Positions 15,526 to 59,187 of a DNA stretch of 64,000 nucleotides are shown here, one piece after another. How positions within the stretch are numbered: the first letter of the stretch is position 1; each line of letters begins with the position of its first letter. The position numbers were made by a program, and so were the translations under genes. The stretch is from Minisyncoccota bacterium (GTDB taxonomy: Bacteria; Patescibacteriota; Minisyncoccia; Phycocordibacterales; GWA1-40-21): the NCBI GenBank assembly GCA_041674925.1, contig JBAYUW010000001.1, positions 5,967-69,966 on the forward strand, in the 5' to 3' direction. A model generated the notes under the pieces. It worked only from the letters and a program-made list of their open reading frames with translations, was not told the origin of the DNA and did no database searches.

Positions 15526-16254
15526 ATGATTGAAATTACTCCAGCAATCCTAGAGGAAAGTATTGAAGAAATCCGAGGCAAGATGGCTTTGGTGTCAGGT
15601 CTCGCACCTTTAGTGCAAATCGATATTTGTGATGGGAAATTTGTTACGAGAAAAACTTGGCCGTATGTCCGTGGTGGAATGGATGAATTTGCCAGAATTT
15701 CCGCTGAAGACGAAGGCTTTCCGTTTTGGGATTCGTTGGATTTTGAGGTGGATATGATGGTTCGTCAGCCAGAAGAGATGGTCCATGATTGGATTAAGGC
15801 TGGTGCTAAAAGTGTTATCCTTCATCTTGGTTCGAGTCCGGATATTTTAGGCTTGATTGAAAAATTGCGAGAAGAATATGGCACGGCCAAGGAAGAAGCT
15901 TTTGGTCTGAGAATTGGCGTGGCGTTAAGTACTGATACCGATAACGAAGAAGTCTTTGAGATTCTGGATATGATTGATGAAGATGGTGACTCGATTATTG
16001 ATTTTGTGCAGTTTATGGGGATTGATCAGATTGGTTTTCAAGGTCAAGAATTTAATGAGAGTGTCTTAGAAAAAATTAGCGACCTACGTGGTATGTATCC
16101 AAATATCGAGATCGCTGTCGATGGTGGAGTAAATTTTGATAATGCAGCTGATTTGATCAGCGCTGGGGCGACCCGTCTAGTTTCCGGTTCAGCGATTTTT
16201 GAAAGTGGTGATGTAGCTAAAGCTCTGGATGATTTAAAAAACGCCGGGGAATAA
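15526..16254 (+). CDS. rpe: ribulose-phosphate 3-epimerase family protein (divergent)
   Basis: ITPAILEES...VQIDICDGKFV..., DFEVDMMV, VDGGVN and LVSGSAIF follow the Rpe TIM-barrel order. The usual His ligands are replaced by Q/D and there is an insertion after strand 2. Confidence 0.6.
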   Translation: MIEITPAILEESIEEIRGKMALVSGLAPLVQIDICDGKFVTRKTWPYVRGGMDEFARISAEDEGFPFWDSLDFEVDMMVRQPEEMVHDWIKAGAKSVILHLGSSPDILGLIEKLREEYGTAKEEAFGLRIGVALSTDTDNEEVFEILDMIDEDGDSIIDFVQFMGIDQIGFQGQEFNESVLEKISDLRGMYPNIEIAVDGGVNFDNAADLISAGATRLVSGSAIFESGDVAKALDDLKNAGE

Positions 16255-16271
16255 TATGTTAGAATAGAAGA

Positions 16272-17138
16272 ATGAAAAAACTTAGAGAATATATTTTGGA
16301 GGCGGAAAAAAATGGTACAGCGATCGGGCACTTTAATATTTCTAATCTTGAGGCCTTGAAAGGAATTTTCCAAGCGGCGAAAAATTTGAATGTGCCGGTC
16401 ATTATCGGTACGGCCGAAGGCGAGCGCAATTTTATTGGCACCAGACAAGCAGTTGCTCTGGTCAAAAGCCTGCGTGAGGAACACGATTTCCCAATTTTCT
16501 TGAATGCGGATCACACTTATTCTTTTGAAAAAGTGAAAGAAGCCGTGGACGCTGGCTATGATGCGGTTATCTTTGATGCGACGAATTTATCTTTTGAAGA
16601 AAATATTAAAATTACTAAGCAGTGTGTCGAATATGCCAAGAGTGTAAATCCCGACATTGTGGTGGAATCCGAACTTGGTTTTATCGGCAGTTCTTCAAAG
16701 GTTTTAGATGGCATTCCAGAGGGAGTAAAAATCACAGAAGAATTCCTAACTAAACCAGAAGAAGCGAAAAAGTTTGTCGAGGAAACTGGTGTAGATATGA
16801 TCGCTCCCGCGGTTGGAAATATTCACGGCATGCTCAAGGGTGGCAAGGACCCAGCCTTAAATATCGCTAGAATTTCAGAAATTAAGAAAGTCGTAGGAAT
16901 TCCGATGGTTTTACACGGCGCCTCTGGTAATTCACCAGAAGATATTCGTGAAGCCATCAAAGCCGGTATGTCCATAGTCCATATTAATACTGAAATTCGC
17001 GTGGCTTACAAGAGTGCTTTAAAATTATCACTTCAAAATAATCCCGAAGAAGTCGCCCCTTATAAATATCTGAAAGAGCCAGTTTTGGCTGTGCAGAATG
17101 TAGTCGAAGATAAGCTAAAGTTGTTCAACAATCTTTAA
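16272..17138 (+). CDS. fba: class II fructose-bisphosphate aldolase
   Basis: AIGHFNISNLE, FLNADHTYSFE, VIFDAT, ESELGFIGS, APAVGNIHG and VLHGASG. TAGAAT (16260-65) lies 6 nt before the ATG, so the mRNA is leaderless. Confidence 0.92.
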   Translation: MKKLREYILEAEKNGTAIGHFNISNLEALKGIFQAAKNLNVPVIIGTAEGERNFIGTRQAVALVKSLREEHDFPIFLNADHTYSFEKVKEAVDAGYDAVIFDATNLSFEENIKITKQCVEYAKSVNPDIVVESELGFIGSSSKVLDGIPEGVKITEEFLTKPEEAKKFVEETGVDMIAPAVGNIHGMLKGGKDPALNIARISEIKKVVGIPMVLHGASGNSPEDIREAIKAGMSIVHINTEIRVAYKSALKLSLQNNPEEVAPYKYLKEPVLAVQNVVEDKLKLFNNL

Positions 17139-17184
17139 TCCCTTTGGGCTTGCGCCGTTTGATTTTTTGTGTATAATTGTCTGC

Positions 17185-17871
17185 ATGCTTAAATTAAAGG
17201 TAGAAAAACGAGATTTAAAAGAAAGTCTAGATAGCTTGCGATCGGCATTCAAATTGCCAGCGGTTTATTATGGAAAAAAAGAGGCTTCGACCCCAATCAA
17301 GCTTAATTTAATAGATTTTAAAAGAGCTCTGAAGACAGCGGGTGAGTCAACCATTATCTCTCTTGATGGTGCCGGTATCGACGTGGATGTTTTGATTCAT
17401 GATGTGGATTTGGATCCAGTTACTGATGTGCCGATCCATGTAGATTTTTATGCGATTGAAAAAGATAAAAAATTGTCTGTTGGTGTACCACTCGAATTCG
17501 TCGGTGTTTCTCCGGCTGTCAAAGATTTAGGCGCGGTCTTGGTCAAGGTGGCCCATGAAATTGAAATCGAAGCTTTGCCAAAAGATTTACCAGGTAAATT
17601 AGAAGCTGATATTTCTGCCCTAGTGAATTTTGATAGCGTCATTACCGCTGCTGATATTAAATTACCGAGTGGCGTCTCTTTGAAGGGTAAACCAGAAGAA
17701 GTTATTGCTTCTGTTTATGAACCAAAAGAAGAAGTCATTGAAACGGCTCCAGTAGATTTGTCTTCAATTGAAGTTGAAAAGAAGGGTAAGGAAACTAAAG
17801 AAGGCGCCGAAGGTGAAGCCGCTCCTGCGACTGAGACCAAGGAAAAAGAAGAGAAGAAAGATAAAAAATAG
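17185..17871 (+). CDS. rplY: 50S ribosomal protein L25/general stress protein Ctc
   Basis: LRSAFKLPAVYYGK, IHDVDLDPVTDVPIHVDFY, a long Ctc-type C-terminal domain and an acidic/K-rich tail. TATAAT (17172-77) lies 7 nt before ATG 17185. Confidence 0.88.
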   Translation: MLKLKVEKRDLKESLDSLRSAFKLPAVYYGKKEASTPIKLNLIDFKRALKTAGESTIISLDGAGIDVDVLIHDVDLDPVTDVPIHVDFYAIEKDKKLSVGVPLEFVGVSPAVKDLGAVLVKVAHEIEIEALPKDLPGKLEADISALVNFDSVITAADIKLPSGVSLKGKPEEVIASVYEPKEEVIETAPVDLSSIEVEKKGKETKEGAEGEAAPATETKEKEEKKDKK

Positions 17872-17893
17872 GATATATGATAAAATAACAGGG

Positions 17894-19249
17894 ATGAAAA
17901 AGATAATCACCCTGTTTTTTATTTGTTTGTTTTTGTTGATTGGATTGAATATTTCAGCTCAGGCTCTTTCGCCGGCCGAGCGGGCTCGTCTGCAAACCGA
18001 ATATGATCAACTCCAGAAAGAAATCGCCGAGTGGCAGAAGGTCTTGGATGAAACCAAGGCGAAAAAGAACACCCTGCAAGGCGATGTGACGGCTTTGAAT
18101 GCTCAGATTGCCAAAGCGGAGAAGGAAATCAAACAAAGAAACATTACCGTTACAACTCTGACAGCTGAGATCAATAAAAAAGTAGCAAACATCAGCTCGC
18201 TCGAAGCTAGAATTGAGAACAATAAAGATTTGCTGGCCAATCTCTTAAAAAAGAAATATCAAAATGATGTGGAGCCGATTTACTATCTTCTCTTATCGGC
18301 CGAAGATCTTTCTGATTTAATTGTAGATATGGATTCGATTAGTGTAGTCAATAGCGGTTTGCAGGATTTATTTGCTGAACTACGTTCGACAAAAACTGAA
18401 ACCCAAAAAGAGAAAGAAGATTTAGATATTAAAAAGAATAAAGAACTAGATGCTAGATACGAAGTCGAACAAAAGAAAAAAGTGATTGCCCAAAGCGAAG
18501 CCGAAAAGAAACAGCTTTTGACTTTAACGACCAAGGTGGAGTCAAATTATCAGCAAGTTTTATCTGATCGTCAGCGTCGGGCGGAGGTGATCAGAAGTGC
18601 TTTGTTTGATTTGCGTGATGCCGGAGGAATTTCTTTTGCTAAGGCTTTGGAATATGCTACTTATGCTTCAGAAAAAACTGGTGTGCGGGCGGCGATGATC
18701 TTGGCAATCTTATCTCAAGAATCTGATCTCGGCAAAAATATTGGTTCATGTTATGTCTCGGATTTGGCGACCGGAAATGGCGTGGGTAAAAATACCGGGA
18801 CTCCATTCCAGCAGGTGATGAAAGCTCCACGCGATACTGTGCCGTTTGGTGAAATCACCAAAGCTCTCGGTTTGACCTGGTCGGTCACACCCGTCTCTTG
18901 TCCTCTTGGTGCAACTTATTATGTTGGTCGTGGTTTCGGTGGAGCGATGGGGCCATCACAATTCATTCCTTCAACTTGGAAATTGTTTGAAAATCGTTTG
19001 AAAACAGCCTTAGGCGTTTCGATGCCAAACCCTTGGGATCCGAAACACGCGGTGATGGCCACAGCCATGTATATGGCCGATTTGGGAGCTAGTACCCAGA
19101 CTTACACCGGTGAAAGAAACGCCGCTTGTCGCTATTATTCTGGTCGGGCTTGCGATGCTCAAAAACCTTACAACACTTCTTATGGTAATTCGGTGATTGC
19201 CAAGGCCGAAAAATTCCAAACTGATATTGATTTTTTGAAGGAGATTTAG
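17894..19249 (+). CDS. secreted coiled-coil protein with C-terminal lytic murein transglycosylase (SLT_2/MltB-like) domain
   Basis: Signal peptide MKKIITLFFICLFLLIGLNISAQA, about 230 aa of heptad-rich coiled coil, then ILSQESDLG (catalytic Glu motif) and GGAMGPSQFIPSTW. Confidence 0.75.
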   Translation: MKKIITLFFICLFLLIGLNISAQALSPAERARLQTEYDQLQKEIAEWQKVLDETKAKKNTLQGDVTALNAQIAKAEKEIKQRNITVTTLTAEINKKVANISSLEARIENNKDLLANLLKKKYQNDVEPIYYLLLSAEDLSDLIVDMDSISVVNSGLQDLFAELRSTKTETQKEKEDLDIKKNKELDARYEVEQKKKVIAQSEAEKKQLLTLTTKVESNYQQVLSDRQRRAEVIRSALFDLRDAGGISFAKALEYATYASEKTGVRAAMILAILSQESDLGKNIGSCYVSDLATGNGVGKNTGTPFQQVMKAPRDTVPFGEITKALGLTWSVTPVSCPLGATYYVGRGFGGAMGPSQFIPSTWKLFENRLKTALGVSMPNPWDPKHAVMATAMYMADLGASTQTYTGERNAACRYYSGRACDAQKPYNTSYGNSVIAKAEKFQTDIDFLKEI

Positions 19250-28141: not shown

Positions 28142-30775
28142 ATGCGTTATTTTTCCAAATATAATCCAAAATCTTTTTTTGTTGTTGGTCTAATTATTTT
28201 TGCGTTAAGCTTTTTTCTATCAAGTAGTATTTTTGCTGAAGGTCCGGGTTGTACTGACCCTTTGGCAATCAATTACAATGCCACTTCGACTATCGAAAAC
28301 GGTACCTGTACCTATCCGACTTTAACTGTTTCGACCTTAGGATCGCAATTACCGTCATTTGAAACTCCGATGAATCTTGATTTAGGAGGAGCTTTTACTT
28401 TTCAAACAGATGAAGGGTCGGTTGTTGTTAATGAAATAACCATCAAGCAGGTTGGATCATTTCCAATTGAATCAATAGGTGATGTAGAACTCATTTATGC
28501 CGAAAGCTCTGGTGGTGTTTGTGAAGACGTTGCGCCTAGTGGATCCAGTTTGGGAGGCGGAAATTTCGAAGAGGGTAATATTGTGACGATAAATAATGGT
28601 GAACCGATGACCGTTAGCACCATTAAAGTCTGTCTTTATGTTGTCTATAATACTTTACCCGACTCGACCGAAGATTTGCTTGGTTATTCAATTGATTTTG
28701 AAATTTCAACAGCCGAAGATATTGTTTTGTCGGCCGCTTCAGCCAACATTGAGATGAACGCACCGCTTAATATATCCGGTGTCAGTATTTTAACTGATGG
28801 ATCCATTACTACTTCATTACTATCATTAAAAATGGCTGATGAGACCAAAGACCCAACCGTTTTTTATTTGAAAGATGATTCAATTTGGAAAAAAGCGGGT
28901 ACTGGTACATCTACCCGTCTTACTAATTCGAATCTAATTGTTCAAGCTTTGGATTTTGAGAGATTAACTCGCTCGATTGGTGAAGGAATTGTGAGGATGT
29001 CGCTAACTATGTCTAATGTGGCGACTGGCACACCAGCTAGTTATCTAAATTTTGCTAAAACTTATACTACAACCGCCAGCACCCGCTCTAATATTTCAGG
29101 CTCATCAGTTACCTCGGTTCACACTGAAATTCTGCCAGTAATTATTTTGTCTGGAACGGCTAGTACGACAATTACTGTTGGTGATTCATACACTGATGCC
29201 GGAGCAACCGCGGTTGATGCTCTTGGTGTAAATATCACAAGTCTGATTGTGACTGGTGGTTTACCAATTAGTACGGTCGCGACTGGCACTCATCAAGTTA
29301 CTTACAATGTCACCGATGCTTATGGTAACTCCGCCACTCCAAAGACTCGAACCGTCACCGTTATCGCTTCTGAAACTGTACCCGACGCTCCAACTATCGG
29401 CACCGCTACTGCTGGTAATGCTACTTCAACCATCACTTACACCGCACCAGGTAATGATGGCGGTTCTGCTATACTTTATTATACAGTCACTTCTTCTAGT
29501 ACTGGAGCAGTTATTTCAGCTACAACTACTTCTTCCACAACAGCTACATTAACTGGCCTAACAAACGGCACCGCCTATACATTTAGTGTAAAAGCGACCA
29601 ATGCCATCGGTACTAGTGCTTCATCTTCAGCTTCAAATCCTGTTACTCCTGCAACAGTTCCCGGAGCTCCAACAATCGGTACCGCGACTGCTGGTAACGC
29701 TACATCAACTGTCACTTACACAGCTCCAGTTTCTAATGGAGGCTCACCTATACTGTATTATACAGTTACTTCAAATCCCGGAAGTATTTCTGCGTCGACT
29801 ACCAGTTCAACAACTGCAACTGTGACTGGTTTAACCAACGACACCGCTTATACCTTTACTGTTACCGCAACAAATGCCGCCGGAATCTCTACCTCATCTT
29901 CGGCTTCAAACTCTGTTACTCCAACCGCTCCAGCAACTTTCATGGTGGCCACTTGCCCAGGTACTGAAACAAATGATGGAGATTATAAAGTATGTAAATT
30001 TACAAGCTCAGGAACATTTACTGTTACCACATTAGGTGATGGCCTGGTAGATGTATTAGTTGTCGGTGGTGGCGGTGGTGGAGGTGGATATAATTACGCA
30101 GGTGGTTCAGGTGGTGGTGGTGGTGGTGGATACACGTCTACTACAAGTCTATCAATTTCTCTGGCGGCTCATAGTGTCACCGTCGGTGCAGGGGGAAGTG
30201 CTGGATCAAATGGAGCCCATGGAAACTCGGGCGGTGCTTCTTCTTTCGGAAGTTACATTTCTGTCTTAGGTGGAGGTGGTGGTGGGCGTAGTCCATTAGT
30301 AGCTGAGCAAGCTCCGTCTGGTGGTTCAGGTGGAGGGGGTGGTGGAAAAAGTGGATCAAAAACATCAACAGGTGGTGCTGGTACGTCTGGTCAGGGTTAT
30401 GCTGGTGGTACAGGAAAAGGATCCGTTAACAGTGGAGATGGTGGTGGTGGAGGAGGAGCTGGCGGTGCTGGGCATTATCAAGCTGGTTATGCCAATGTAG
30501 ATGGAGGAGCTGGTAAGGCTAATAGTATCACTGGTACTTCACTTTATTACGCTGGTGGAGGGGGAGGAGGAGGTGTGTATATCGCCGGAGGATTAGGCGG
30601 TTCAAGTGTTGGCGGACGCGGTTCAGGGCGTATGGAAGATTTGAACTCTTCAACTCCAACCGCTAATCGTGGAGGTGGAGGTGGAGGTGGAGCGCAGGAC
30701 GATAGTCCTGCCGTTTGGAGACCCCCATCATCAGGTGCTGATGGAGTCGTTATTATTCGGTATAAATACAAATAA
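28142..30775 (+). CDS. large secreted surface protein: N-terminal beta-rich region, Ig-like (DUF5011/HYR-type) domain, 2 x fibronectin type III, C-terminal glycine-rich domain
   Basis: Signal/anchor FFVVGLIIFALSFFLSSSIFA. The Ig-like segment is GDSYTDAGATAVDA...GTHQVTYNVTDAYGNSA. Two 93-aa FN3 repeats read PTIGTATAGNATST.TYTAP...LYYTVTS...TGLTN.TAYTF.V.ATNA.G. A GGGGG-rich tail ends in DGVVIIRYKY. Confidence 0.8.
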   Translation: MRYFSKYNPKSFFVVGLIIFALSFFLSSSIFAEGPGCTDPLAINYNATSTIENGTCTYPTLTVSTLGSQLPSFETPMNLDLGGAFTFQTDEGSVVVNEITIKQVGSFPIESIGDVELIYAESSGGVCEDVAPSGSSLGGGNFEEGNIVTINNGEPMTVSTIKVCLYVVYNTLPDSTEDLLGYSIDFEISTAEDIVLSAASANIEMNAPLNISGVSILTDGSITTSLLSLKMADETKDPTVFYLKDDSIWKKAGTGTSTRLTNSNLIVQALDFERLTRSIGEGIVRMSLTMSNVATGTPASYLNFAKTYTTTASTRSNISGSSVTSVHTEILPVIILSGTASTTITVGDSYTDAGATAVDALGVNITSLIVTGGLPISTVATGTHQVTYNVTDAYGNSATPKTRTVTVIASETVPDAPTIGTATAGNATSTITYTAPGNDGGSAILYYTVTSSSTGAVISATTTSSTTATLTGLTNGTAYTFSVKATNAIGTSASSSASNPVTPATVPGAPTIGTATAGNATSTVTYTAPVSNGGSPILYYTVTSNPGSISASTTSSTTATVTGLTNDTAYTFTVTATNAAGISTSSSASNSVTPTAPATFMVATCPGTETNDGDYKVCKFTSSGTFTVTTLGDGLVDVLVVGGGGGGGGYNYAGGSGGGGGGGYTSTTSLSISLAAHSVTVGAGGSAGSNGAHGNSGGASSFGSYISVLGGGGGGRSPLVAEQAPSGGSGGGGGGKSGSKTSTGGAGTSGQGYAGGTGKGSVNSGDGGGGGGAGGAGHYQAGYANVDGGAGKANSITGTSLYYAGGGGGGGVYIAGGLGGSSVGGRGSGRMEDLNSSTPTANRGGGGGGGAQDDSPAVWRPPSSGADGVVIIRYKYK
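29378..29926 (+). repeat. tandem 279-nt (93-codon) FN3-encoding repeat, 2 copies
   Basis: Copy 1 starts GTACCCGACGCTCCAACTATCGGC at 29378 and copy 2 starts GTTCCCGGAGCTCCAACAATCGGT at 29657. Both are in frame and roughly three-quarters identical by eye. Confidence 0.8.
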
Positions 30776-36964: not shown

Positions 36965-36993
36965 TTGACTTCTTATCTATTTGGGTGTATAAT
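36965..36993 (+). promoter_or_regulatory. conserved promoter module (copy C) driving GC-rich cassette B
   Basis: cCTTGACTTcttatctATTTGGGTGTATAAT: TTGACT, 17-nt spacer, TATAAT. About 26/31 identical to the modules at 56266-56294 and 57198-57226. Confidence 0.7.
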
Positions 36994-37054
36994 AGCAAAT
37001 AGATTGGGGTGTTTGAAAATTAGTACATGTGGCGATGCCACGGAGGATTAAGTC

Positions 37055-37519
37055 ATGACAAGACTGATGTTTTGGTCCTTGGTAACCTTGCTGGGAGGCG
37101 GGATGCTCGTCCTTGGTTTTATCAAAAAGAAAAACTGGCGGGCCCTTATGCTTTTCGGAGCCTTGTTTTTTATGGTGGGCGTACAGGTAATAGAATTTTA
37201 CCTCGAGCCCAAAGTATCACCAGTGAAGAATCAAGTTCAAATCGAGGCAGAAGATGGTTTTTTTGGCCTCGGCTATCTTCCGGTGGTGAGTAACAGCTAC
37301 TGCAAGTATAGTGGCGCGCATATGATCACCGTTGTGAATACCAACGATCCTGCTTTCCGAGCAGACTGTGTTGTTCGGGAAGAAGCAGAACATGATTCGA
37401 TCGTGTATCTGGCTAATGGAGAAGCGGTGGCTTATGTCGGTTTCCGACTTCTCGGTTCCGAGAGCAACAAGGTTTACTTCGTGTTGCGCGATGCCTATCG
37501 TCTGTACCCACTCAAGTGA
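37055..37519 (+). CDS. hypothetical 2-TM membrane protein, GC-rich ORFan (cassette B)
   Basis: GGAGG at 37042-46, 8 nt before the ATG. TM helices FWSLVTLLGGGMLVLGFI and ALMLFGALFFMVGVQVIEF, then a beta-rich soluble domain. 29/60 G+C at 37381-37440. Confidence 0.6.
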   Translation: MTRLMFWSLVTLLGGGMLVLGFIKKKNWRALMLFGALFFMVGVQVIEFYLEPKVSPVKNQVQIEAEDGFFGLGYLPVVSNSYCKYSGAHMITVVNTNDPAFRADCVVREEAEHDSIVYLANGEAVAYVGFRLLGSESNKVYFVLRDAYRLYPLK

Positions 37520-37536
37520 CACACCTGTTCCTCTCG

Positions 37537-37576
37537 AGCCCTGCCTAGCATTTCGGTGCGAAGCGGGGCTTTTTTT
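37537..37576 (+). terminator. GC-rich intrinsic terminator of cassette B
   Basis: AGCCCTGC...GCGGGGCT 8-bp stem followed by TTTTTT. Confidence 0.7.
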
Positions 37577-37659
37577 ATTGTAATTTTCTTAAACTGCCCC
37601 GTCTTTAGGAAATGAGGTCGGGAGGTGATTTTGAAAGTCTGTTGTGGTATAATAATCCC

Positions 37660-40265: not shown

Positions 40266-40562
40266 ATGAATACACCGGATAATTTCAAAGAGCTAGTCCA
40301 AGATACTTTCATTGAGGGTATTTTAAATCCAATCGTGCCTTTTTTGATTGGTTTGGCGGTCGTTATGTTTATTTACGGAGTCTTACTCTTCATGTTTAAT
40401 GACGGTGGGGAAAAGAGGGAAGAGGGTAAACAATATATGATCTGGGGCATTGTCGGTATCTTTGTCATGGTTTCAGTTTGGGGTTTGGTAGCGATTTTGA
40501 CCGGTACTTTTCAATTAAACAATAGCGTACCGACAATCCAAATGAACGTACCGAATCTATAG
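40266..40562 (+). CDS. VirB2/TrbC-like small membrane protein (paralog 3, no obvious signal peptide)
   Basis: TM, loop NDGGEKREEGKQ, TM. Shares WGI.GIFVMVSVWGLVAIL with paralogs 4 and 5. Confidence 0.55.
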   Translation: MNTPDNFKELVQDTFIEGILNPIVPFLIGLAVVMFIYGVLLFMFNDGGEKREEGKQYMIWGIVGIFVMVSVWGLVAILTGTFQLNNSVPTIQMNVPNL

Positions 40563-40649
40563 GGGTAGTTGCCACTTTTTTATAATAAGTTATAATTACA
40601 CAGTAAATAAAAGGTCGGATAATAAAATTTTACCAATAAAAATAATTTC

Positions 40650-41018
40650 GTGAAAAAAATAGCAAGTTTAATCTCAGCCATAGTTTTGCTTCTCCCAATG
40701 ATTGGATCAGCCGCGGTGAACTCAACTTATTTTACCGATGTGATCAAGGAAGGATCAAAGGTGTTGAATGATCTGGTGATTTTCTTGGTTGCCTTGGCTG
40801 TCGTCTGGTTTATTTGGAATGTGATTCGTTACACCCTAGCCGATGATGAGGAAAAAAAAGGAGCAGCTAAAATGCAGATGGTTTGGGGTATTATCGCTAT
40901 TGCGGTCATTGTTTCGGTCTGGGGCTTGGTAGCTATCTTAAGAAATATGTTTGGGGTTGATAATAATAGTGCTATTCCCACCAGAGAGATAAATAGTATG
41001 ATTCCTCAGGTTCGATAA
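40650..41018 (+). CDS. VirB2/TrbC-like small membrane protein (paralog 4)
   Basis: GTG start. Signal peptide, then ALAVVWFIWNVIRYT-LADDEEKKGAAK-...WGIIAIAVIVSVWGLVAIL. Confidence 0.6.
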   Translation: MKKIASLISAIVLLLPMIGSAAVNSTYFTDVIKEGSKVLNDLVIFLVALAVVWFIWNVIRYTLADDEEKKGAAKMQMVWGIIAIAVIVSVWGLVAILRNMFGVDNNSAIPTREINSMIPQVR

Positions 41019-41053
41019 TGTTTATTAATTTATTAGTTTTAATTAAAAAAAAT

Positions 41054-41410
41054 ATGAAGAAGTTTGTGAAAGTTATTGCCGGTTCCGCTTGGGCTCTGCC
41101 ATTTGTGGCTTTAGCTCAAGAAGCTAACGCTAGTTATATTAGTTCGCTTATTGATAGTGCCAAGACTGTCTTGGACCAATTGGTGGTCTTTTTAATTGCT
41201 TTAGCTGTCGTTTGGTTCATTTGGAACGTCATTCGCTATACTATGTCCTCTGATGAAGAGAAGAAAGGTGCGGCAAAGGGTCAGATGATTTGGGGTATTA
41301 TCGCTATTGCGGTTATTGTCTCAGTTTGGGGTTTGGTCGCCATCTTACAAAGCCTATTCGGAGTTGGTAATACCAGCGCTGGTGATGTCGGTGGTCTTTT
41401 GCCTCAATAA
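41054..41410 (+). CDS. VirB2/TrbC-like small membrane protein (paralog 5, recent duplicate of paralog 4)
   Basis: The core is identical to paralog 4 over ALAVVWFIWNVIRYT, DEEKKGAAK and WGIIAIAVIVSVWGLVAIL. The DNA differs mostly at synonymous sites. Confidence 0.6.
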   Translation: MKKFVKVIAGSAWALPFVALAQEANASYISSLIDSAKTVLDQLVVFLIALAVVWFIWNVIRYTMSSDEEKKGAAKGQMIWGIIAIAVIVSVWGLVAILQSLFGVGNTSAGDVGGLLPQ

Positions 41411-41412
41411 TT

Positions 41413-41676
41413 ATGAATTCCTCATCATCAATCGGAGATTATAACACCCTTTTGATTAGTATTTTAGAGAATATTGGTAATCCTCTTGTTACCCTAATGT
41501 TGGGTGTGGCGGTGGTTTACTTTCTCTACGGAGTATTCGTCTTCGTCCGTAATGCCGAAAGTCCGGAAAAAAGGAAGGAGGGTGGAATGCATATACTTTT
41601 TGGAGCTCTGGGTCTATTCATTATGATCTCGGCCTATGGAATTATAAATTTGATTTTGGGCACGATGGGGAAATAG
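41413..41676 (+). CDS. VirB2/TrbC-like small membrane protein (paralog 6)
   Basis: TM, loop NAESPEKRKEGG, TM. The N-terminus resembles paralog 3. Confidence 0.55.
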   Translation: MNSSSSIGDYNTLLISILENIGNPLVTLMLGVAVVYFLYGVFVFVRNAESPEKRKEGGMHILFGALGLFIMISAYGIINLILGTMGK

Positions 41677-44471: not shown

Positions 44472-45188
44472 TTACCCATGCCTCTTCATTATTTCGACTA
44501 TTTTGTTCGATAACCTATCTGGCCGTACAGATAAATACTCTTTAAACTTATTGTATTTTCTCCTTGTAAATAATCTCCCCTGGACATTATTATACATAAA
44601 TTCGAATAATTTAACAGTGTCATTTGTACCATAGCGTAATTGATAAGATCTGTGACTTTTATAGATTCTAAATTTAGTATCTGTAACTTTTGTTAGTACC
44701 TTACCTAATCCGTTTAAAAAATCCTTGCTTCCACTGGTAATTGCGACCAGAAGTCTTTTGTACATTAACCTACCATTTTTATCTTGCGATTTTTCTAGAT
44801 AGATACAACCATCACCATCAAAATAACCTCTAATAAAATGGTGAATTACTGGTTTTGGTATTTTTGGGAAAATCATTGTGAATGTTTTATTTGGGTATAA
44901 ACCAAGTTTATTTAATCGATTAAACAATTTATGGCTACCTATTCGCAGTATATACCTTATCTTTCTAGCGCTTGTTATTGGCGGTAAAATAACAATTTTA
45001 TGTTTAGAACCCATAAGCCTCTTGAATAGATAAATTCTGTCCTTATCAATACTAGTAATCGATATGTATTTTGCTCTTATATCTTTACAATCAGATAGGC
45101 AACCGTCGGCATATAAGTATCCCAGTATATAGGCCATTTCAGGTTTCCAGATATTGAAGAACTTCTCATTGATTTTATGTTTTGACAC
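44472..45188 (-). CDS. LAGLIDADG family homing endonuclease (two-motif, free-standing)
   Basis: Two dodecapeptide motifs, AYILGYLYADGCL and IRGYFDGDGCIYL, about 100 aa apart. The stop codon lies 3 nt from the tRNA-Cys 5' end. Confidence 0.85.
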   Translation of the reverse strand: MSKHKINEKFFNIWKPEMAYILGYLYADGCLSDCKDIRAKYISITSIDKDRIYLFKRLMGSKHKIVILPPITSARKIRYILRIGSHKLFNRLNKLGLYPNKTFTMIFPKIPKPVIHHFIRGYFDGDGCIYLEKSQDKNGRLMYKRLLVAITSGSKDFLNGLGKVLTKVTDTKFRIYKSHRSYQLRYGTNDTVKLFEFMYNNVQGRLFTRRKYNKFKEYLSVRPDRLSNKIVEIMKRHG

Positions 45189-53265: not shown

Positions 53266-53369
53266 ATATAATATAAGCCGTTGATAAATGATTATAAACG
53301 TGCTATCGTTTTACAAGAATTCAGTGAACATTAACGTGCGGAGTGAGCGAAATTGAGAGGAGGAATGCG

Positions 53370-53834
53370 ATGATACGTATATTGTTGGTGTCGATACTCT
53401 TCGCGGCCATGGTCTGCTTTTGCACGGTGGATGACGAATTCACCGTTAGGGACCGAGATGACGCACAGGTAATCTTTGGGATCAGTATTCCCATGAGTAC
53501 TGAGGAAAAAGAGGCAGCTCGTCCCGTAGTGATGGACGTCATACTCGAGCGACGCGAAATCACTCGCAGTAGTTGTAAGGAGTATAAAGCTCTGGCCAAT
53601 CTCGCGTCCACTCAAAAGGTCGAATCGGTTGAGGTGGCCTTTTCCGATATGAGTCGCCTTGAACAACGAGAGAAGGAACTGGATATTTCGTGGTCAGCAT
53701 ACAGTGAGTCATATGACCGCTATCTTCGTTCCGTCTCGTTGGCCCATCACATGGGGTTCAAGGAGGAAGCTCGATATTTCGGTTATTGCACCGAAGATGA
53801 TGGGTTTAAGGTGACCGAATACGTTGCCTTCTGA
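53370..53834 (+). CDS. hypothetical exported/anchored protein, GC-rich ORFan (cassette C)
   Basis: GAGGAGG at 53357-63, 6 nt before ATG 53370 (the ORF is open from GTG 53343). N-terminal hydrophobic MIRILLVSILFAAMVCFC. 34/60 G+C at 53401-53460. Confidence 0.55.
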   Translation: MIRILLVSILFAAMVCFCTVDDEFTVRDRDDAQVIFGISIPMSTEEKEAARPVVMDVILERREITRSSCKEYKALANLASTQKVESVEVAFSDMSRLEQREKELDISWSAYSESYDRYLRSVSLAHHMGFKEEARYFGYCTEDDGFKVTEYVAF

Positions 53835-53852
53835 ACGGAACAGGTCTTTCTC

Positions 53853-53881
53853 GTGGCGTGCCAAACGGTGCGCCACTTTTT
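53853..53881 (+). terminator. GC-rich intrinsic terminator of cassette C
   Basis: GTGGCG-tgccaaacggtg-CGCCAC followed by TTTTT. Confidence 0.7.
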
Positions 53882-53968
53882 ATTTTCCCCACAAAGACCG
53901 CTGTGTTCAAACGAGATTAACTGTATAATCAACTTTACTAACCAGATTTTGTTTGTTAGATTAAGTTC

Positions 53969-54657: not shown

Positions 54658-55674
54658 ATGAAAAATCAAAAAGGTTTTATTGTGCCAGTACTCGTCGCTA
54701 TTATCGCTGTTTTAATAATTAGCGGTGGGGTATATCTTTATCAAAATAAAAAAGTCGAAGTGCCAGGAATAAATATTAATAGTAATATTCCGACATCGAC
54801 CAAGACTTATAAAAGTGATAAATTTTCTCTCCAGTTTCAATATCCAGCAGAACTATCTGTTAGTGAAAACTCTCAGAAAATTATTTTAAATCATTCTATT
54901 CCTTATAAACACCAAGATCCTTGTGATTTTAAAGGCGACGGCACCAGTCTCGATAATCTCACAGATTTTAATGTCTCCCTACAACTTTTTAATCAAAACA
55001 TAAGTGATTTACTACAAAGTAGCGCATCACCCGGAGAAAGCTATGTTTACAGTAATCCTTTCAAAACTAATTCTTTAAACGGCTATAAAATTCAACTTGG
55101 AGTGGAAGGTTGCGGTAATTATACATATTATTTTCCTACCTCCATTAATCAGACATTGGTAATTACACGCTCACTTATCACCGAGCTTGGTGACGCGATT
55201 ACAAATAAACAAGAATATTTAAGCCTTCCTGGTGTCATCTTACCATCACAAGAAGAGATGATGATGAATCAGATTTTAGACTCTCTCAAGTTTACACCAA
55301 CCAAAACCGCGGTCGAATTTGTGGAGCTAATCTTGTATATTCAAGACAAAACCCAAGTTGCAACCAACAGCTGTAGTATTACTCACCAGGTTGTTTACAA
55401 AATTCCTAAGACTACCGCGGTGGCCGACGCTTCATTAAGGATTCTTTTCAATGGGGAATTATTCAGCTATGGTTCTTATAAATCAGTAACTATTGTAAAT
55501 GGTGTGGCTAAAGTCATGCTGGAAAGTAATTTGACAAAGGCAGGTAAACCAATCGGTTCACTGAGTAGCTGTGAGAGCTCACATTTGTTATCTGTTTTGA
55601 GGGATACGCTTACGCAATATGATTCTATAAAATCTGTCGAATTGCTTTCCCCGCAGGGTTCTATTCAGTTCTAA
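54658..55674 (+). CDS. hypothetical membrane-anchored protein (possible C-terminal GerMN-like domain)
   Basis: TM FIVPVLVAIIAVLIISGGVYL. The C-terminal ~110 aa (LYIQDK...YKIPKTTAVADASLRILFNG...SVLRDTLTQYDSIKSVEL) resembles GerMN, which is a weak by-eye call. Confidence 0.4.
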   Translation: MKNQKGFIVPVLVAIIAVLIISGGVYLYQNKKVEVPGININSNIPTSTKTYKSDKFSLQFQYPAELSVSENSQKIILNHSIPYKHQDPCDFKGDGTSLDNLTDFNVSLQLFNQNISDLLQSSASPGESYVYSNPFKTNSLNGYKIQLGVEGCGNYTYYFPTSINQTLVITRSLITELGDAITNKQEYLSLPGVILPSQEEMMMNQILDSLKFTPTKTAVEFVELILYIQDKTQVATNSCSITHQVVYKIPKTTAVADASLRILFNGELFSYGSYKSVTIVNGVAKVMLESNLTKAGKPIGSLSSCESSHLLSVLRDTLTQYDSIKSVELLSPQGSIQF

Positions 55675-56276
55675 TGATAAAGAAATCTAAATCCTACACC
55701 ATCGGTATCGACGAAGTTGGTCGTGGGCCAATCGCTGGACCAGTTGCCGTCTGTTCTTTGTGTTTGGGGCCGAAATTCAAAAAGAGTAATTTCCAGAATT
55801 TTCGTGACTCCAAGAAACTTTCGCATCTTCAAAGATTAAACTGGCTGGAGAAAATAAATATTGAAAAAGAGAAAGGAAACATTTTTTACAAAGTCTGTCT
55901 GGAGAGTAATGAAGTCATTGATCAAAGAGGTCTAACTTTTGCGATAAAACGCGCGCTCAGTAATTCTTTAAATAGTTTAAAAATCAAACCAAAAAATTGC
56001 GAAGTTCTTTTGGATGGGGGATTGAGGGCACCGATAGAATACATAAATCAAAAAACAATTATAAAAGGGGATGAAAAAGAATTGGCGATTGCGCTGGCTT
56101 CGATTGTGGCGAAAGTTACTCGTGATGCTTTGATGGTGAAATTAGCCAAGAAATATCCAGGGTACGGTCTAGAGAAGCATAAGGGTTATGGCACCTCAGC
56201 GCACTATAAAGCCTTGAAAAACAAGGGTCTTTCTCCAATACATCGCAAGAGCTTCCTCAAGAAGCTTGACTTTTAA
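55674..56276 (+). CDS. rnhB: ribonuclease HII
   Basis: IGIDEVGRGPIAGPV, DSKKLS, ASIVAKVTRD, GYGLEKHKGYGT..H. The last 5 codons and the stop (AAG AAG CTT GAC TTT TAA) lie inside the conserved promoter module. Confidence 0.9.
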   Translation: MIKKSKSYTIGIDEVGRGPIAGPVAVCSLCLGPKFKKSNFQNFRDSKKLSHLQRLNWLEKINIEKEKGNIFYKVCLESNEVIDQRGLTFAIKRALSNSLNSLKIKPKNCEVLLDGGLRAPIEYINQKTIIKGDEKELAIALASIVAKVTRDALMVKLAKKYPGYGLEKHKGYGTSAHYKALKNKGLSPIHRKSFLKKLDF

Positions 56277-56304
56277 CCAATTTGGGTGTATAATTGTGGG
56301 TAGA
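56257..56304 (+). repeat. direct repeat copy 1 (promoter module; partner at 57189-57236)
   Basis: The core AAGCTTGACTTTTAAcCaATTTGGGTGTATAATTGT (56262-97) is 34/36 identical to 57194-57229. About 42/48 identical over the extended span. Confidence 0.85.
56266..56294 (+). promoter_or_regulatory. conserved promoter module (copy A) driving GC-rich cassette D
   Basis: TTGACT (56266-71), 17-nt spacer, TGTATAAT (TATAAT at 56289-94). Confidence 0.7.
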
Positions 56305-56372
56305 GTAGCTGGCCTAGCTATTTGGATTACATAACGAGCAATTGTATTTTTGTCGGCCGCAAGCTTACAAAA

Positions 56373-57119
56373 ATGTCCGCAAGACTATGGTCCCGAAAAA
56401 AGGCAGAGAAAGAGATAGTTGACATGAATGCTCATGGCGAAAATATCGACGACTTGCTCGGTCTGGTTGATCCCGAACTCGTGCGATCGTACGGACGAAA
56501 CCGTCTAAGTGATGGAATGAATCTGGCGCAGGTTAACGACAAGTATAAGGAAGTCGAACAGAAACTGGTGGTTCTTGCACGTCGACACAAAATGCTTTTA
56601 CTCTGTGTTGTCACAATGCTTCCCATCAGTTTTCTTGCTTCTGTGTTCATGAAATCACCTGGCCTCGGCATTGTGTTGGCGTGCATATTGGCGCTCGGTT
56701 CGAAATTCATTGACAATCTATATGTTCGGGCAGAAGATCGGATCGGCACACTTCGGCACTCACTCGTGGCGGATCTCAAGACCTTCAGGAATGCTACGGA
56801 GGCGCTGAAGAGCCCGATCGGGCGGACGATGCGTGAGTATACGGCGGCCTCGACCCGTGACAATTTGATCACGTGCGCGGTTCGGATACTCGACGCGGAA
56901 GCCAAGCTCGATGAGGTGCGCTTCATGACGAATCGGCGGTTGCATGATCTGGTCCACTACAGCAACTGGTTGATGCGTTGCCAAGAGGAGCAGAAGAAGA
57001 TCGAGGAGGGAATCAAGGTCTTCGGTCTGAAGTTTGATCGTTCGGAGATATTCGCGGAGGCTCGCAAGCACAACGCGCGCGTCGACGCCGAGATTCAAAA
57101 AGGGATCGACGGTAAGTAA
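56373..57119 (+). CDS. hypothetical 2-TM membrane protein, GC-rich ORFan (cassette D)
   Basis: The ORF is open from TTG 56322; the first ATG is 56373. The central hairpin MLLLCVVTMLPISFLASVF / GLGIVLACILALGSKFI is flanked by helical cytoplasmic domains. 36/60 G+C at 56761-56820, versus 19/60 at 55861-55920 in rnhB. Confidence 0.55.
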   Translation: MSARLWSRKKAEKEIVDMNAHGENIDDLLGLVDPELVRSYGRNRLSDGMNLAQVNDKYKEVEQKLVVLARRHKMLLLCVVTMLPISFLASVFMKSPGLGIVLACILALGSKFIDNLYVRAEDRIGTLRHSLVADLKTFRNATEALKSPIGRTMREYTAASTRDNLITCAVRILDAEAKLDEVRFMTNRRLHDLVHYSNWLMRCQEEQKKIEEGIKVFGLKFDRSEIFAEARKHNARVDAEIQKGIDGK

Positions 57120-57139
57120 GTCCAGCATCGCTGGCATTT

Positions 57140-57168
57140 GGGTACCTCTTCACGGAGGTGCCCTTTTT
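57140..57168 (+). terminator. GC-rich intrinsic terminator of cassette D
   Basis: GGGTACCTC-ttcac(g)-GAGGTGCCC followed by TTTTT. Confidence 0.8.
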
Positions 57169-57188
57169 AATACTTAAATTTGAATATT

Positions 57189-57236
57189 TTAAAAAGCTTG
57201 ACTTTTAATCCATTTGGGTGTATAATTGTATGTAGA
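57189..57236 (+). repeat. direct repeat copy 2 (promoter module; partner at 56257-56304)
   Basis: Contains AAAAAGCTTGACTTTTAA, the same string that encodes the rnhB C-terminus and stop in copy 1, but here it is non-coding. Confidence 0.85.
57198..57226 (+). promoter_or_regulatory. conserved promoter module (copy B) driving the GC-rich Nudix cassette E
   Basis: TTGACT (57198-203), 17-nt spacer, TGTATAAT (TATAAT at 57221-26). Confidence 0.7.
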
Positions 57237-57298
57237 AAGATAAGAACAGGTTTCCTGTGTGGGAGGCCTTTGACAGCAATTCCAATTGGAGATTCAGC

Positions 57299-57817
57299 AT
57301 GAATAACGTGATTGAGAAGCCGAGTCATTTTTCGGCCGGACTTTTTCTGCACCGACGTACCGATGGTAGTGGTCTCTATGACACGATCGGCGTCACCAAG
57401 CATCGGTTTCCGGATGGCGTACAGATGCCTGGTGGCACGAATCGACGTTGCCTCTGGGAAGTGCCAGAGATGACCTTGGAGCGCGAGTTCGCGGAAGAGA
57501 CCGGATATCGTCCGGTGTCTTATAACCTCCTGCTGTCTAGGGAGTTTGGGGATGGAGGGCATACCCAGAACTTTTTCGTCATCAAGCAGGCTGTCGGTCA
57601 CTTTAACGGTCCACGGACTTTTACTGAGACTGATGGAGAGATGGTGGAGGTTCGGATTTGGGAACTCGGTGAATTTCATCGCCACCTCTGCCCGACCCAT
57701 CGGCCAGCCTTTCTGAAGGCATGTCAGGTGTTGATCCGCGTAGACGTGTCGTTTCGCAGGAATTATCCCGAGATCTGCGATGATGTCCGCGCCGCCGAGT
57801 ATCGGCAAGAGTTCTGA
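57299..57817 (+). CDS. Nudix hydrolase, GC-rich (cassette E)
   Basis: The Nudix box at 57431-57508 is GGTNRRCLWEVPEMTLEREFAEETGY (Ex7REUxEExGU intact). GGAG lies 7 nt before ATG 57299 (the ORF is open from GTG 57257). 34/60 G+C at 57421-57480. Confidence 0.75.
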   Translation: MNNVIEKPSHFSAGLFLHRRTDGSGLYDTIGVTKHRFPDGVQMPGGTNRRCLWEVPEMTLEREFAEETGYRPVSYNLLLSREFGDGGHTQNFFVIKQAVGHFNGPRTFTETDGEMVEVRIWELGEFHRHLCPTHRPAFLKACQVLIRVDVSFRRNYPEICDDVRAAEYRQEF

Positions 57818-57845
57818 ACTAATCGAAGGGAGAGTGTGAGCGAAT

Positions 57846-57884
57846 AGCTGGGTTGTTGCACGTTGAGCAACCCGGCTATTTTTT
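57846..57884 (+). terminator. GC-rich intrinsic terminator of cassette E
   Basis: AGCTGGGTTG...CAACCCGGCT 10-bp stem (one G.U pair) followed by TTTTTT. Confidence 0.75.
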
Positions 57885-57930
57885 ATACCCGAACATTGCT
57901 TTTTATATCAAATATGCTAAGATAGTCCCC

Positions 57931-58158
57931 ATGGTAAATCGAATGCGACATAACCGAGCTCAGCGAGGCGACACTCGCTCACATCACGCTTTAAAAGCGG
58001 TGGACCTTTCCGTTTGTCCTGATTGCAATACTAAAAGATTAAATCACAAAGTTTGTTCTAACTGTGGTAAATATAATGGCCGAGTGGTCATTGATGTCGG
58101 TGCTAAAATCGCTAAAAAAGAGAAGAAACTAAAAGCGAAGAAAGAGGAGAGTAAGTAA
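57931..58158 (+). CDS. rpmF: 50S ribosomal protein L32
   Basis: MVNRMRHNRAQRGDTRSHHAL.....CP.C......H.VC..CG.Y.G with a Zn-ribbon and a K-rich tail. The ORF is open from 57853. Confidence 0.88.
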   Translation: MVNRMRHNRAQRGDTRSHHALKAVDLSVCPDCNTKRLNHKVCSNCGKYNGRVVIDVGAKIAKKEKKLKAKKEESK

Positions 58159-58230
58159 AAACAAACATAGTTTGAATTTTGAGTGGAATGGTTGGTGCCG
58201 TCCCGAAAAATTTAAACTATGTTTGTTTTT
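58157..58230 (+). other. long inverted repeat (23-24 bp stem, ~28-nt loop) between rpmF and nusB-rnc
   Basis: AAAAACAAACATAGTTTGAATTT (58157-79) pairs with AAATTTAAACTATGTTTGTTTTT (58208-30) with a single G.U. The left arm starts inside the rpmF stop codon. A T-run follows. Confidence 0.7.
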
Positions 58231-58278
58231 ATTTGTGTTTTGCTGTATAATTACCCCAGCGTAATTAAAGTTATTTAC

Positions 58279-59187
58279 ATGGCCAATCGGCACATTGCAA
58301 GATCAATCGTATTACAGTCTTTGTTTGAACTCGATTTTCGAGATTATTCAGACGTTAATCCTGAAGAAATACTTTTGCGCAATGCGGCAGAATTTGCCAA
58401 TGATGTGGTGGATATTAAATTCGTTGAGTCTCTACTTGACGGTGTTTTGAAAAAGAAAAACGAAATTGATCTCGTGATTGAAAAAGCGGCGCCTGATTGG
58501 CCACTTGATAAAATTTCTATGATTGATCGCAACGTTCTGCGTATTGGCCTGTTTGAATTATTATTTGCTGATTCGAAAGAAGTGCCAGCCAAGGTGGCCA
58601 TTAACGAAGCGATTGAACTATCCAAAAATTATGGCGGAGAAAAAAGTAGTAAATTCGTGAACGGTGTCCTTGGTTCTGTCTACAAAGAGTTGGGTGAGCC
58701 GGATAAAGAGGCGACTTCCAAAAAGAAGAAAAATGCCATTGTGGATATTCCATATGAAAAGATGCCGATTGAAAGATTGGGCGGAGCAATTGTTTATACA
58801 AAAAACGAAGGTCAGTATTATCTTGCTCTGGTCCACGATGTCTTTGGTTACTGGACTTTATCCAAGGGCCGACTGGAAGAAGGCGAAAGTGAGACCGACG
58901 GTACCGCTCGAGAAATAAAAGAAGAAATTGGCTTATCGGTAAAGGTTCTAGACGAAATTGGTCGCAATGAATATATTGCCAATCATCCAGAAAAAGGCAA
59001 AGTGCGCAAGCAAGTGACCTATTTTCTTGCTCAATCAGATTATCAAGATCTGCAATTAGAGAAAGACAATGGTGGTTTGGACGAAGCCCGCTGGTTTAAA
59101 TTGACGGAAGTACAAGATATAAAAACCTACGGTGATATTTTGCCGTTCATCACCAAAGCGATTAGCTTGATTTCCCAGCGAGAATAA
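58279..59187 (+). CDS. nusB: NusB transcription antitermination factor fused to a C-terminal Nudix hydrolase domain
   Basis: The N-terminal ~140 aa is NusB (ARSIVLQSLFELDF, DRNVLRIGLFELLF, PAKVAINEAIELSKNYGGEKSSKFVNGVLG). The C-terminal domain has a perfect Nudix box GRLEEGESETDGTAREIKEEIGL (58867-58935). Confidence 0.8.
   Translation: MANRHIARSIVLQSLFELDFRDYSDVNPEEILLRNAAEFANDVVDIKFVESLLDGVLKKKNEIDLVIEKAAPDWPLDKISMIDRNVLRIGLFELLFADSKEVPAKVAINEAIELSKNYGGEKSSKFVNGVLGSVYKELGEPDKEATSKKKKNAIVDIPYEKMPIERLGGAIVYTKNEGQYYLALVHDVFGYWTLSKGRLEEGESETDGTAREIKEEIGLSVKVLDEIGRNEYIANHPEKGKVRKQVTYFLAQSDYQDLQLEKDNGGLDEARWFKLTEVQDIKTYGDILPFITKAISLISQRE

Follow-up and report, generated by a model that had tools for sequence, protein, structure and literature searches.

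The interval between the core genes rnhB (RNase HII) and rpmF (ribosomal protein L32) was analysed in a stretch of 64,000 nucleotides from a Minisyncoccota bacterium (contig JBAYUW010000001.1 of GenBank assembly GCA_041674925.1; this whole stretch is called the window hereafter). The interval holds two GC-rich units, cassettes 1 and 2, each made up of a promoter-like sequence, a leader, a single open reading frame (ORF1 and ORF2, respectively) and a hairpin terminator. In this Paceibacterota clade the interval is probably a fixed slot for stand-alone accessory units, into which cassette 1 was recently inserted with duplication of the resident promoter. A preliminary description of the locus had offered two readings: insertion of a ~932-bp unit with duplication of the promoter, or fusion of the left end of a mobile cassette to the 3' end of rnhB. 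The first fits cassette 1, since a close relative is collinear with the window on either side and lacks positions 56295-57190.

The two promoter sequences form a direct repeat of 46 nt (56259-56304 and 57191-57236) with 89% identity. At best, 41 of 46 nt match, whereas 30 shuffles of the region reached no more than 29. The counts given in the preliminary description (34/36 in the core and 42/48 over a longer span) proved correct by direct reading, and so did the TTGACT-N17-TATAAT announced before each ORF: both copies carry it, with 11 of 12 consensus matches, and they outrank every other promoter-like site in 54-60 kb. The perfect form TTGAC-N18-TATAAT occurs only three times in the window, always as a cassette promoter (two here, one after gyrA). 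The motif suggested for further searches matches nothing, having one N too many (N8; the true gap is N7), and the repeat is not confined to this site, as the core ATTTGGGTGTATAAT is present a third time at 36965-36993.

Such similarity might in principle reflect convergence of two promoters on an optimal sequence, without any duplication. Indeed, TTGAC-N10-TTTGGGTGTATAAT is found with unrelated spacers in hundreds of unrelated contigs, and in viral contigs it is at least 5-24 times commoner than control variants. However, the likeness of the two copies extends to the spacer TTTTAAyCmA, which is not part of the consensus, to the 9 nt that precede the -35 box and to TGTnnGTAGA on the downstream side. 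Given this common spacer and common flanks, which include the rnhB stop context, and 41 of 46 matches against the shuffle maximum, we regard convergence as highly improbable. Copies 1 and 2 are true duplicates, as they agree in the spacer, in the rnhB context before the promoter and in the bases immediately after it.

The direction of the duplication can be read directly. The last rnhB codons (KKLDF*) hold the -35 box of copy 1, and the same overlap is present in four comparison loci (L136, L137, L213 and L405). Copy 1 is orthologous to the single promoter of L136 and L137 (blastn match, L136 5583-5618). In copy 2 a decayed rnhB tail, AAAAAGCTTGACTTTTAA, sits in non-coding DNA; copy 2 is therefore the derived copy, and the same tail implies that the duplicated segment was at least 50 nt long and was copied from the resident, rnhB-overlapping promoter. 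Copy 2 retains the ancestral AAAAAG of L136 and L137, and farther to the 5' side TTTT has replaced the ancestral CCTC by C-to-T decay; copy 1, still coding, carries a synonymous AAG. With the overlap ancestral and copy 2 derived, the second of the earlier readings, in which copy 1 is a mobile left end fused to rnhB, is contradicted.

The orthology of the flanks was observed in L136, the closest relative, which shares 90% identity with the window in RnhB and 93-94% in other core proteins. Blastn gave three collinear matches between the two sequences: window positions 55603-56294 (rnhB and promoter), 57191-57279 (the same promoter and leader) and 57842-58276 (terminator and rpmF; L136 6358-6800). 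Both promoter copies of the window map onto the single L136 promoter, and no counterpart of window positions 56295-57190 (ORF1 leader, ORF1 and terminator) was found in L136 by blastn. Cassette 1 (~0.9 kb) is absent from L136, L137, L213 and L405. From the relatives compared, only cassette 1 is specific to the window lineage.

Relatives were obtained from an RnhB search; the locus was read in six of them, plus the P0014 contig, for which only called genes were used. Exactly one ORF lies between rnhB and rpmF in L136/L135 (RnhB 90% identical), L137 (78-81%), L213 (77%), L405 (72-74%) and P0014; there are two in L407 (68%), as in the window, and none in L406 (70%), where promoter, gene and terminator are all missing. 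A promoter of the same kind is found at the rnhB stop wherever a slot gene is present (AAAAAGCTTGACTTTTAACCCATTTGGGTGTATAAT in L136; CCTTGACATTTTACCCCTTTGGGTGTATAAT in L213, where the TGA stop lies within the -35 box), and just downstream of the stop in L407. With the exception of ORF1, the slot genes can be aligned collinearly and form a single divergent Nudix-like family; the two of L407 are tandem paralogues, each with a promoter and a leader formed of GATAAG and a hairpin. Because rnhB-stop promoter, Nudix-like gene and terminator recur down to 68% RnhB identity, cassette 2 is, on this synteny, an old resident of the slot and not a recent arrival; the unit is present at the site in relatives with 68-91% RnhB identity. 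The preliminary description had named a conserved arrangement at this locus as an observation that would speak against it, and such conservation was found for the cassette 2 half.

The following sequence of events is proposed. The resident unit consists of a near-consensus sigma-70-type promoter (TTGAC, a 17-nt spacer ending in TTTGGGTG, and TATAAT) lying over the rnhB stop, a leader in which a hairpin is conserved, a Nudix-like gene that is GC-rich and evolves fast, and a predicted intrinsic terminator; rpmF follows with a promoter-like site of its own. About 0.9 kb carrying the orphan membrane-protein gene ORF1 and a terminator would have been inserted just downstream of the resident promoter, with duplication of at least 50 nt, from the rnhB tail through the promoter to about the transcription start. 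ORF1 would now use the original promoter and the Nudix-like gene its copy. Since each has its own promoter, transcription of the two genes is predicted to be strong, independent and shielded from the core genes. The preferred route would be recombination through promoter homology, either by single-crossover integration of a circular fragment or by unequal crossover between related genomes; a transposase or integrase would not be needed. The sister genome L135 (a 90% relative) comes from the same sample, ERZ27247358.

Several points weigh against this proposal. A homology of 46-50 nt is short for RecA-dependent recombination. Promoter and terminator activity is, like the route of insertion, something that we infer, in this case from matches to the consensus and from folding. 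Searches of protein and viral sequences (5.8e9 proteins, INPHARED, IMG/VR) revealed no donor of ORF1, which may have arisen de novo or be extremely diverged. The empty L406 site could represent a deletion and not the primitive state. The Nudix-like genes fall into two subtypes, A and B, which are distributed incongruently with the core genes, and this incongruence can come from exchange or from differential loss of old paralogues. Finally, the proposal does not account for the GC-richness of the cassette genes.

The tandem arrangement of L407 suggests another history, in which the whole resident unit was duplicated in tandem and the upstream leader, gene and terminator were later replaced by those of ORF1. 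In L407 the slot does contain two Nudix-like paralogues in tandem, each with a promoter and a hairpin leader. However, beyond the 46-50 nt of the promoter the cassettes share nothing, their leaders, bodies and terminators being unrelated, and tblastn of all frames of 56295-57200 detected no trace of the Nudix-like family (best E = 0.056, a 13-residue match). A second, unexplained replacement event would also be required, and we consider this history unlikely. Insertion with promoter duplication is thus retained as the preferred reading.

The preliminary description had raised the possibility of an assembly artefact, either a chimera or a collapsed repeat, with read mapping as the suggested check. 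The window does come from an assembled metagenome whose sample also contains a closely related population. The Logan assembly of SRR6484325 provided an independent check: a single contig (L003, 1925 bp) covers the rnhB end, both cassettes with the repeat and the rpmF leader, and is base-identical to the window. An artefact is unlikely because this assembly gives the identical arrangement. In addition, NCBI and JGI have copies of the ORFs on a 94-kb contig, and a repeat of 46-50 nt with 5 mismatches is far below the k-mer suggested by the name prefix k141 of the ENA contig that contains the window (ERZ27247358:k141_2270275, 91 kb; the NCBI copy of the genes belongs to a Candidatus Paceibacterota metagenome-assembled genome). 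All in all, an artefact is scarcely conceivable.

The GC-rich cassette bodies reported earlier were borne out (GC 0.50-0.58 against a background of ~0.39). ORF1 and ORF2 have a GC content of 0.52-0.54 and a GC content at third codon positions (GC3) of 0.60-0.62; the corresponding values of neighbouring core genes are 0.39-0.42 and 0.36-0.43. Slot genes from each of the lineages examined are rich in GC (GC3 0.57-0.73 versus 0.26-0.47 in core genes), which indicates that their composition is maintained and is not the fading trace of one transfer. They are also much less conserved (21-44% identity) than the core proteins (78-94%). A simple recent transfer cannot explain why GC3 values of 0.57-0.73 persist amid values of 0.3-0.4 in lineages that share 68-94% identity in their core proteins. 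The cause could be selection, exchange within a pool of GC-rich genes, or a recombination hotspot with GC-biased gene conversion. High expression was rejected as a cause, the GC3 of the L32 and enolase genes being only 0.34-0.36. The candidate that the GC-rich bodies are RNA genes was rejected as well.

Deviant composition together with a promoter and a terminator of their own recalls phage morons (PMC3594210), and both cassettes might be mobile, moron-like elements from a GC-rich donor (phage or plasmid) that carried their own promoters, copy 1 having fused to rnhB. Viral contigs contain the promoter core in abundance, often arranged in arrays, and promoter, gene and terminator are missing together from the L406 slot, as might be expected of such an element. 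Against this, the promoter/rnhB overlap and the Nudix-like gene are conserved in the clade, with the high GC3 in every lineage, so that there is no fresh import; the relic of the rnhB coding tail in copy 2 places the source of that copy at the resident site; a search for viral or phage homologues of ORF1 and ORF2 gave none (PHROG, INPHARED, IMG/VR); and the spacers vary among the public matches to the promoter, as in instances of a consensus and not as in copies of one element. We therefore judge such an origin decidedly improbable and keep to the insertion of cassette 1 into a slot already occupied by cassette 2. The coordinates of the features are collected in Table 1.

Table 1. Features of the rnhB-rpmF interval and of two further GC-rich units in the window (window coordinates)
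Feature	Position	Strand	Details
Third unit, after gyrA	36965..37578	+	Promoter TTGACTTCTTATCTATTTGGGTGTATAAT 36965-36993; orphan ORF3 with two transmembrane segments (2-TM) 37055-37519, GC3 0.53; terminator 37536-37571 + T-run
Fourth unit, Band_7-trmD slot	53281..53885	+	Promoter TTGATA-17-TATCGT 53281-53309; ORF4 53370-53834; terminator 53853-53876
rnhB (RNase HII)	55674..56276	+	Pfam RNase_HII 2.7e-35
Promoter copy 1 (resident)	56255..56304	+	-35 TTGACT 56266-56271; -10 TATAAT 56289-56294, preceded by ATTTGGGTG
Cassette 1 leader	56305..56372	+	Unrelated to cassette 2 leader; weak 5' hairpin, -11.3 kcal/mol, z = -0.98, not significant
ORF1, orphan	56373..57119	+	Two hydrophobic helices and a long helical C-terminal part; alternative start 56424
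Cassette 1 intrinsic terminator (predicted)	57140..57168	+	10-bp stem, 6 GC pairs, T-run; -17.9 kcal/mol, z = -3.9
Promoter copy 2 (derived)	57187..57236	+	-35 57198-57203; -10 57221-57226; non-coding rnhB-tail relic AAAAAGCTTGACTTTTAA
Conserved hairpin in the 5' untranslated region of the Nudix-like unit	57248..57268	+	After GATAAG; fold -11.6 kcal/mol
ORF2, divergent Nudix-like (subtype A)	57299..57817	+	GGAG upstream; 42% identical to L405 slot gene
Cassette 2 intrinsic terminator (predicted)	57842..57885	+	-24.6 kcal/mol, z = -6.6; partly conserved in L136
rpmF promoter-like site	57896..57923	+	TTGCTT-16-TAAGAT, read from sequence; conserved in L136
rpmF (ribosomal protein L32)	57931..58158	+	Pfam Ribosomal_L32p 2.2e-12

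The identification of the flanking genes as rnhB and rpmF agrees with Pfam, and the wider surroundings of the locus consist of trmD, rnhB, rpmF, nusB, rnc and smc. The hairpin and T-run terminators noticed earlier were found behind both ORFs. The same description had both ORFs led by a Shine-Dalgarno sequence; ORF2 is preceded by GGAG, but before ORF1 no Shine-Dalgarno sequence can be clearly made out, and where ORF1 starts is uncertain (at 56373 or, in the 231-aa NCBI model, at 56424). The GC content at the three codon positions of ORF1 (0.58/0.35/0.62) fits coding on the + strand, an antisense ORF called by one pipeline being atypical; by this pattern ORF1 is a real + strand gene. A search of 5.8e9 proteins returned no match besides ORF1 itself, no Pfam, PADLOC or PHROG match and no viral relative (INPHARED, IMG/VR) was found, and ORF1 has no BLASTP similarity to ORF2. 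The AlphaFold2 model of ORF1 is all-helical, with a predicted local distance difference test score (pLDDT) of 59.7, too uncertain for a fold search. We also considered ORF1 as a frameshifted Nudix copy; this candidate was rejected, as cassette 1 DNA contains no trace of the Nudix family.

ORF2 had been called a Nudix hydrolase. The REUxEExGU part of its Nudix box is intact (GGTNRRCLWEVPEMTLEREFAEETGY), but its Pfam NUDIX score of 20.1 bits lies below the cut-off of 21.1, as do those of two homologues (18.8 and 19.2 bits). A profile built from 7 slot genes matched only Nudix structures in the PDB (best E = 2.3e-3). Relative to the Nudix superfamily, the box of ORF2 has the form G-x7-E-x7-REFAEETGY, with a first spacing of 7 residues where the canonical one is 5, i.e. 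2 residues longer, and subtype B of the slot family, found in sister genomes, has a degenerate box. The single-sequence AlphaFold2 model of ORF2 was unusable (pLDDT 36.1). A word-indexed homologue search with ORF2 returned the query only, having missed the 42%-identical L405 gene that was later found by synteny; no relatives were found among INPHARED phages or IMG/VR, and none of ORF1-ORF4 matched PADLOC or PHROG. Leaders with GATAAG and a hairpin are present in the window, L136, L137, L213, L405 and L407, and RNAalifold on 7 slot-gene leaders gave 7 hairpin pairs, 5 of them with compensatory changes. An Rfam scan of 56200-57950 left the leader hairpin unmatched and returned no family besides a chance-level sbrA match on the terminator.

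Two observations concern the 3' side of the slot. NusB, encoded at 58279-59187, has a NUDIX domain fused to its C-terminus (both domains above the Pfam cut-offs), a fusion kept in all relatives examined, so that a second Nudix domain exists at the locus just 3' of rpmF. In addition, a 28-nt inverted repeat (93% complementary, with 26 nt between its arms) extends over the rpmF stop and the region upstream of nusB at 58153-58234 and is also conserved in L136.

The preliminary description knew of no described element type that moves as promoter, ORF and terminator, and thereby overlooked phage morons and putative mobile promoters. The moron concept is reportedly that of Juhala and Hendrix. A moron is a single gene with its own promoter and terminator and a deviant composition, variably present between genes that are adjacent in relatives (PMC3594210). 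The cassettes resemble morons in having a promoter (11 of 12 consensus matches, a match of sequence only) and hairpin/T-run terminators, and in a composition unlike that of their neighbours; cassette 1 is extra DNA with respect to collinear relatives, and the slot is empty in L406. They differ in lying in a cellular chromosome between housekeeping genes (rnhB/rpmF, gyrA/methyltransferase gene, Band_7/trmD), and no phage or prophage context is indicated by PHROG, INPHARED or IMG/VR relatives of ORF1 and ORF2, none having been found. Cassette 2, moreover, is an old slot resident whose deviant GC content is kept across lineages.

Putative mobile promoters, described by Matus-Garcia, Nijveen and van Passel in 2012, form a second comparison. 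These are promoter segments, 50-100 nt in length and no less than 80% identical, that precede non-homologous genes in one genome (PMC3488235). The promoters before the non-homologous ORF1 and ORF2 are likewise near-identical; in length, however, the repeat (46 nt at 89% identity, or ~50 nt when the decayed tail of rnhB is counted) stands at the lower limit. Here, moreover, the copies are adjacent and bracket an inserted gene, and the origin of the copy can be read from the rnhB-tail relic. Integron cassettes are likewise tandem single-gene units at a fixed chromosomal site with varying occupancy among relatives, but in the present case each unit has its own promoter and the repeat lies at the 5' end. 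No attC-like feature was seen, the three 3' hairpins sharing no sequence and being followed by T-runs, and no integrase Pfam family was found in genes called from ~6 kb upstream to 20 kb downstream of rnhB. As regards transposons and insertion sequences, no inverted repeats flank either cassette, the direct repeat measures 46-50 nt and the ORFs have no Pfam hit. On these observations the cassettes belong neither to integron arrays nor to transposons.

A further likeness is to the target genes of diversity-generating retroelements (DGRs) of candidate phyla radiation (CPR) bacteria, which have the same promoter type (TTGACA...TTTGGGTGTATAAT...GTAGA) before a GC-rich gene in AT-rich surroundings. 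Most AT-rich metagenome matches to the 18-nt-spacer form of the promoter are DGR target genes. DGRs were recognized in L034, L044, L057, L109, L134 and others (metagenome) and in L147, L162, L174, L180 and L183 (GTDB); in L034, L057, L109 and L134, pairs of variable and template repeats (VR/TR) of 85-129 nt differ at template adenines, and an RVT_1 protein is encoded downstream. The target genes (GC 0.50-0.58) stand behind TTGACAAAnTAGGnTG-TTTGGGTGTATAAT-nnnGGTAGA, upstream of which a CCTTATTTTAAGCC motif recurs; the template repeat is located 370-460 nt downstream and is followed by an AT-rich reverse transcriptase gene (~335 aa). No direct repeat of at least 35 nt was found at ORF 3' ends anywhere in the window, nor was a reverse transcriptase found among the called genes around the locus. 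The cassettes, which have no VR/TR repeat, were therefore rejected as DGR targets.

The promoter core itself is no signature of an element; it is a widespread strong-promoter form of Patescibacteria, Clostridia and phages. TTGAC-N10-TTTGGGTGTATAAT was found at 118 or more loci in GTDB genomes, many of them of Patescibacteria and Clostridia, and at 120 or more loci in IMG/VR, often in arrays with 300-600 nt between copies, resembling phage early promoters. Control variants gave far fewer IMG/VR matches (GGG-to-CCC, 5; TG-to-AC, 24; 18-nt spacer, 11), which marks TTTGGGTG before TATAAT, at a spacer length of 17 nt, as a form favoured in strong promoters. As their spacers differ, the public matches exemplify a consensus and do not represent copies of a single element. 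No rRNA or tRNA was found downstream of the promoter in other loci (Rfam). Upstream of TATAAT, TTTGGGTG is strongly over-represented in phage and Patescibacteria promoters, and it offers a concrete target for promoter biochemistry. Large viral contigs from IMG/VR (L283, L295, L308, L320, L362 and others) contain arrays of near-identical TTGACAtTAAATggtTTTGGGTGTATAAT spaced by 300-600 nt, which by their layout look like phage early promoters.

Further GC-rich units are present in the window and its continuation. The third unit (Table 1) is located between gyrA and a methyltransferase gene; in L252 (GyrA 68% identical) these genes are ~25 nt apart, without a cassette. A full phmmer search of 1.84e9 representatives with ORF3 returned the query only. 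ORF4, in the fourth unit, encodes a lipoprotein-like orphan of 154 aa behind a promoter unlike those of the cassettes and is followed by a strong terminator; the Band_7-trmD slot of L406 contains a different GC-rich small ORF behind CTTGACAAAATCTGTATTTGGGTATATACT (a ATTTGGGTATATACT promoter). In sister genomes, GC-rich small ORFs occupy the Band_7-trmD and rnc-smc slots. Past the end of the window, the same contig (L408) has more such units at 12990-13480, 16190-17900 and 17900-18180. They combine promoter-like sites (AAGCTTGACA..., TTGCTA...TGTGATATACT) with terminators formed by GC-rich hairpins, and they encode small membrane proteins and a 344-aa orphan. In GTDB loci named as Patescibacteria, 14 of the 33 promoter-adjacent ORFs among the matches listed exceed their flanks in GC content by at least 0.08; such an excess was seen in 9% of other ORFs in the same loci and in 0 of 22 in loci named as Clostridia. 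The promoter-adjacent genes read in GTDB loci, DGR targets apart, have no detectable mutual similarity, and several have signal or lipoprotein-like N-termini.

The locus is thus one instance of a Patescibacteria pattern, in which GC-rich, family-less genes, several of them with membrane or secretion signals, and DGR targets stand behind this promoter type between AT-rich core genes. No publication describing such units in Patescibacteria was found in a limited literature search. It can be suggested, tentatively and with more doubt than conviction, that Patescibacteria keep a pool of GC-rich, fast-diverging expression units for membrane, secreted and Nudix-like proteins and for DGR targets, each with a strong consensus promoter, a leader, one gene and a terminator in a fixed slot between core genes. 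Such units would be gained, lost, duplicated and swapped between co-occurring relatives without a dedicated recombinase, by recombination through their conserved promoter/leader and terminator flanks, and their high GC3 would be upheld by this recombination (GC-biased gene conversion) or by selection.

The specific event at the rnhB-rpmF slot is an ordinary change that happens to be unusually clear: a gene inserted with duplication of a resident promoter. The genomes of CPR bacteria (Patescibacteria) are tiny and streamlined, and the ways in which these organisms gain new genes and bring them to expression are poorly understood. The locus offers a dated, stepwise example in which an orphan gene is predicted to have gained expression by landing behind a duplicated resident promoter. 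The more interesting lead is the existence of moron-like, persistently GC-rich units in fixed chromosomal slots, with a promoter type in common with DGR targets; this repeated architecture could be the main route for varying surface and accessory proteins.

Three other regions of the window deserve mention. At 40266-41676 there is a run of small paralogous membrane-protein genes with direct repeats of 62-213 nt (73-77% identity), an arrangement that suggests tandem gene duplication. A secreted-looking protein of 877 aa is encoded at 28142-30775, with internal repeats of ~275 nt (29367-29922) and a GC content of 0.45-0.47, above the background. Finally, an AT-rich ORF (GC 0.31) on the reverse strand at 44472-45188, beside tRNA-Cys and tRNA-Leu genes, contains the LAGLIDADG-like motif LGYLYADG and may encode a homing endonuclease; a similar-looking AT-rich ORF is present in L137 between clpB and a tRNA gene.

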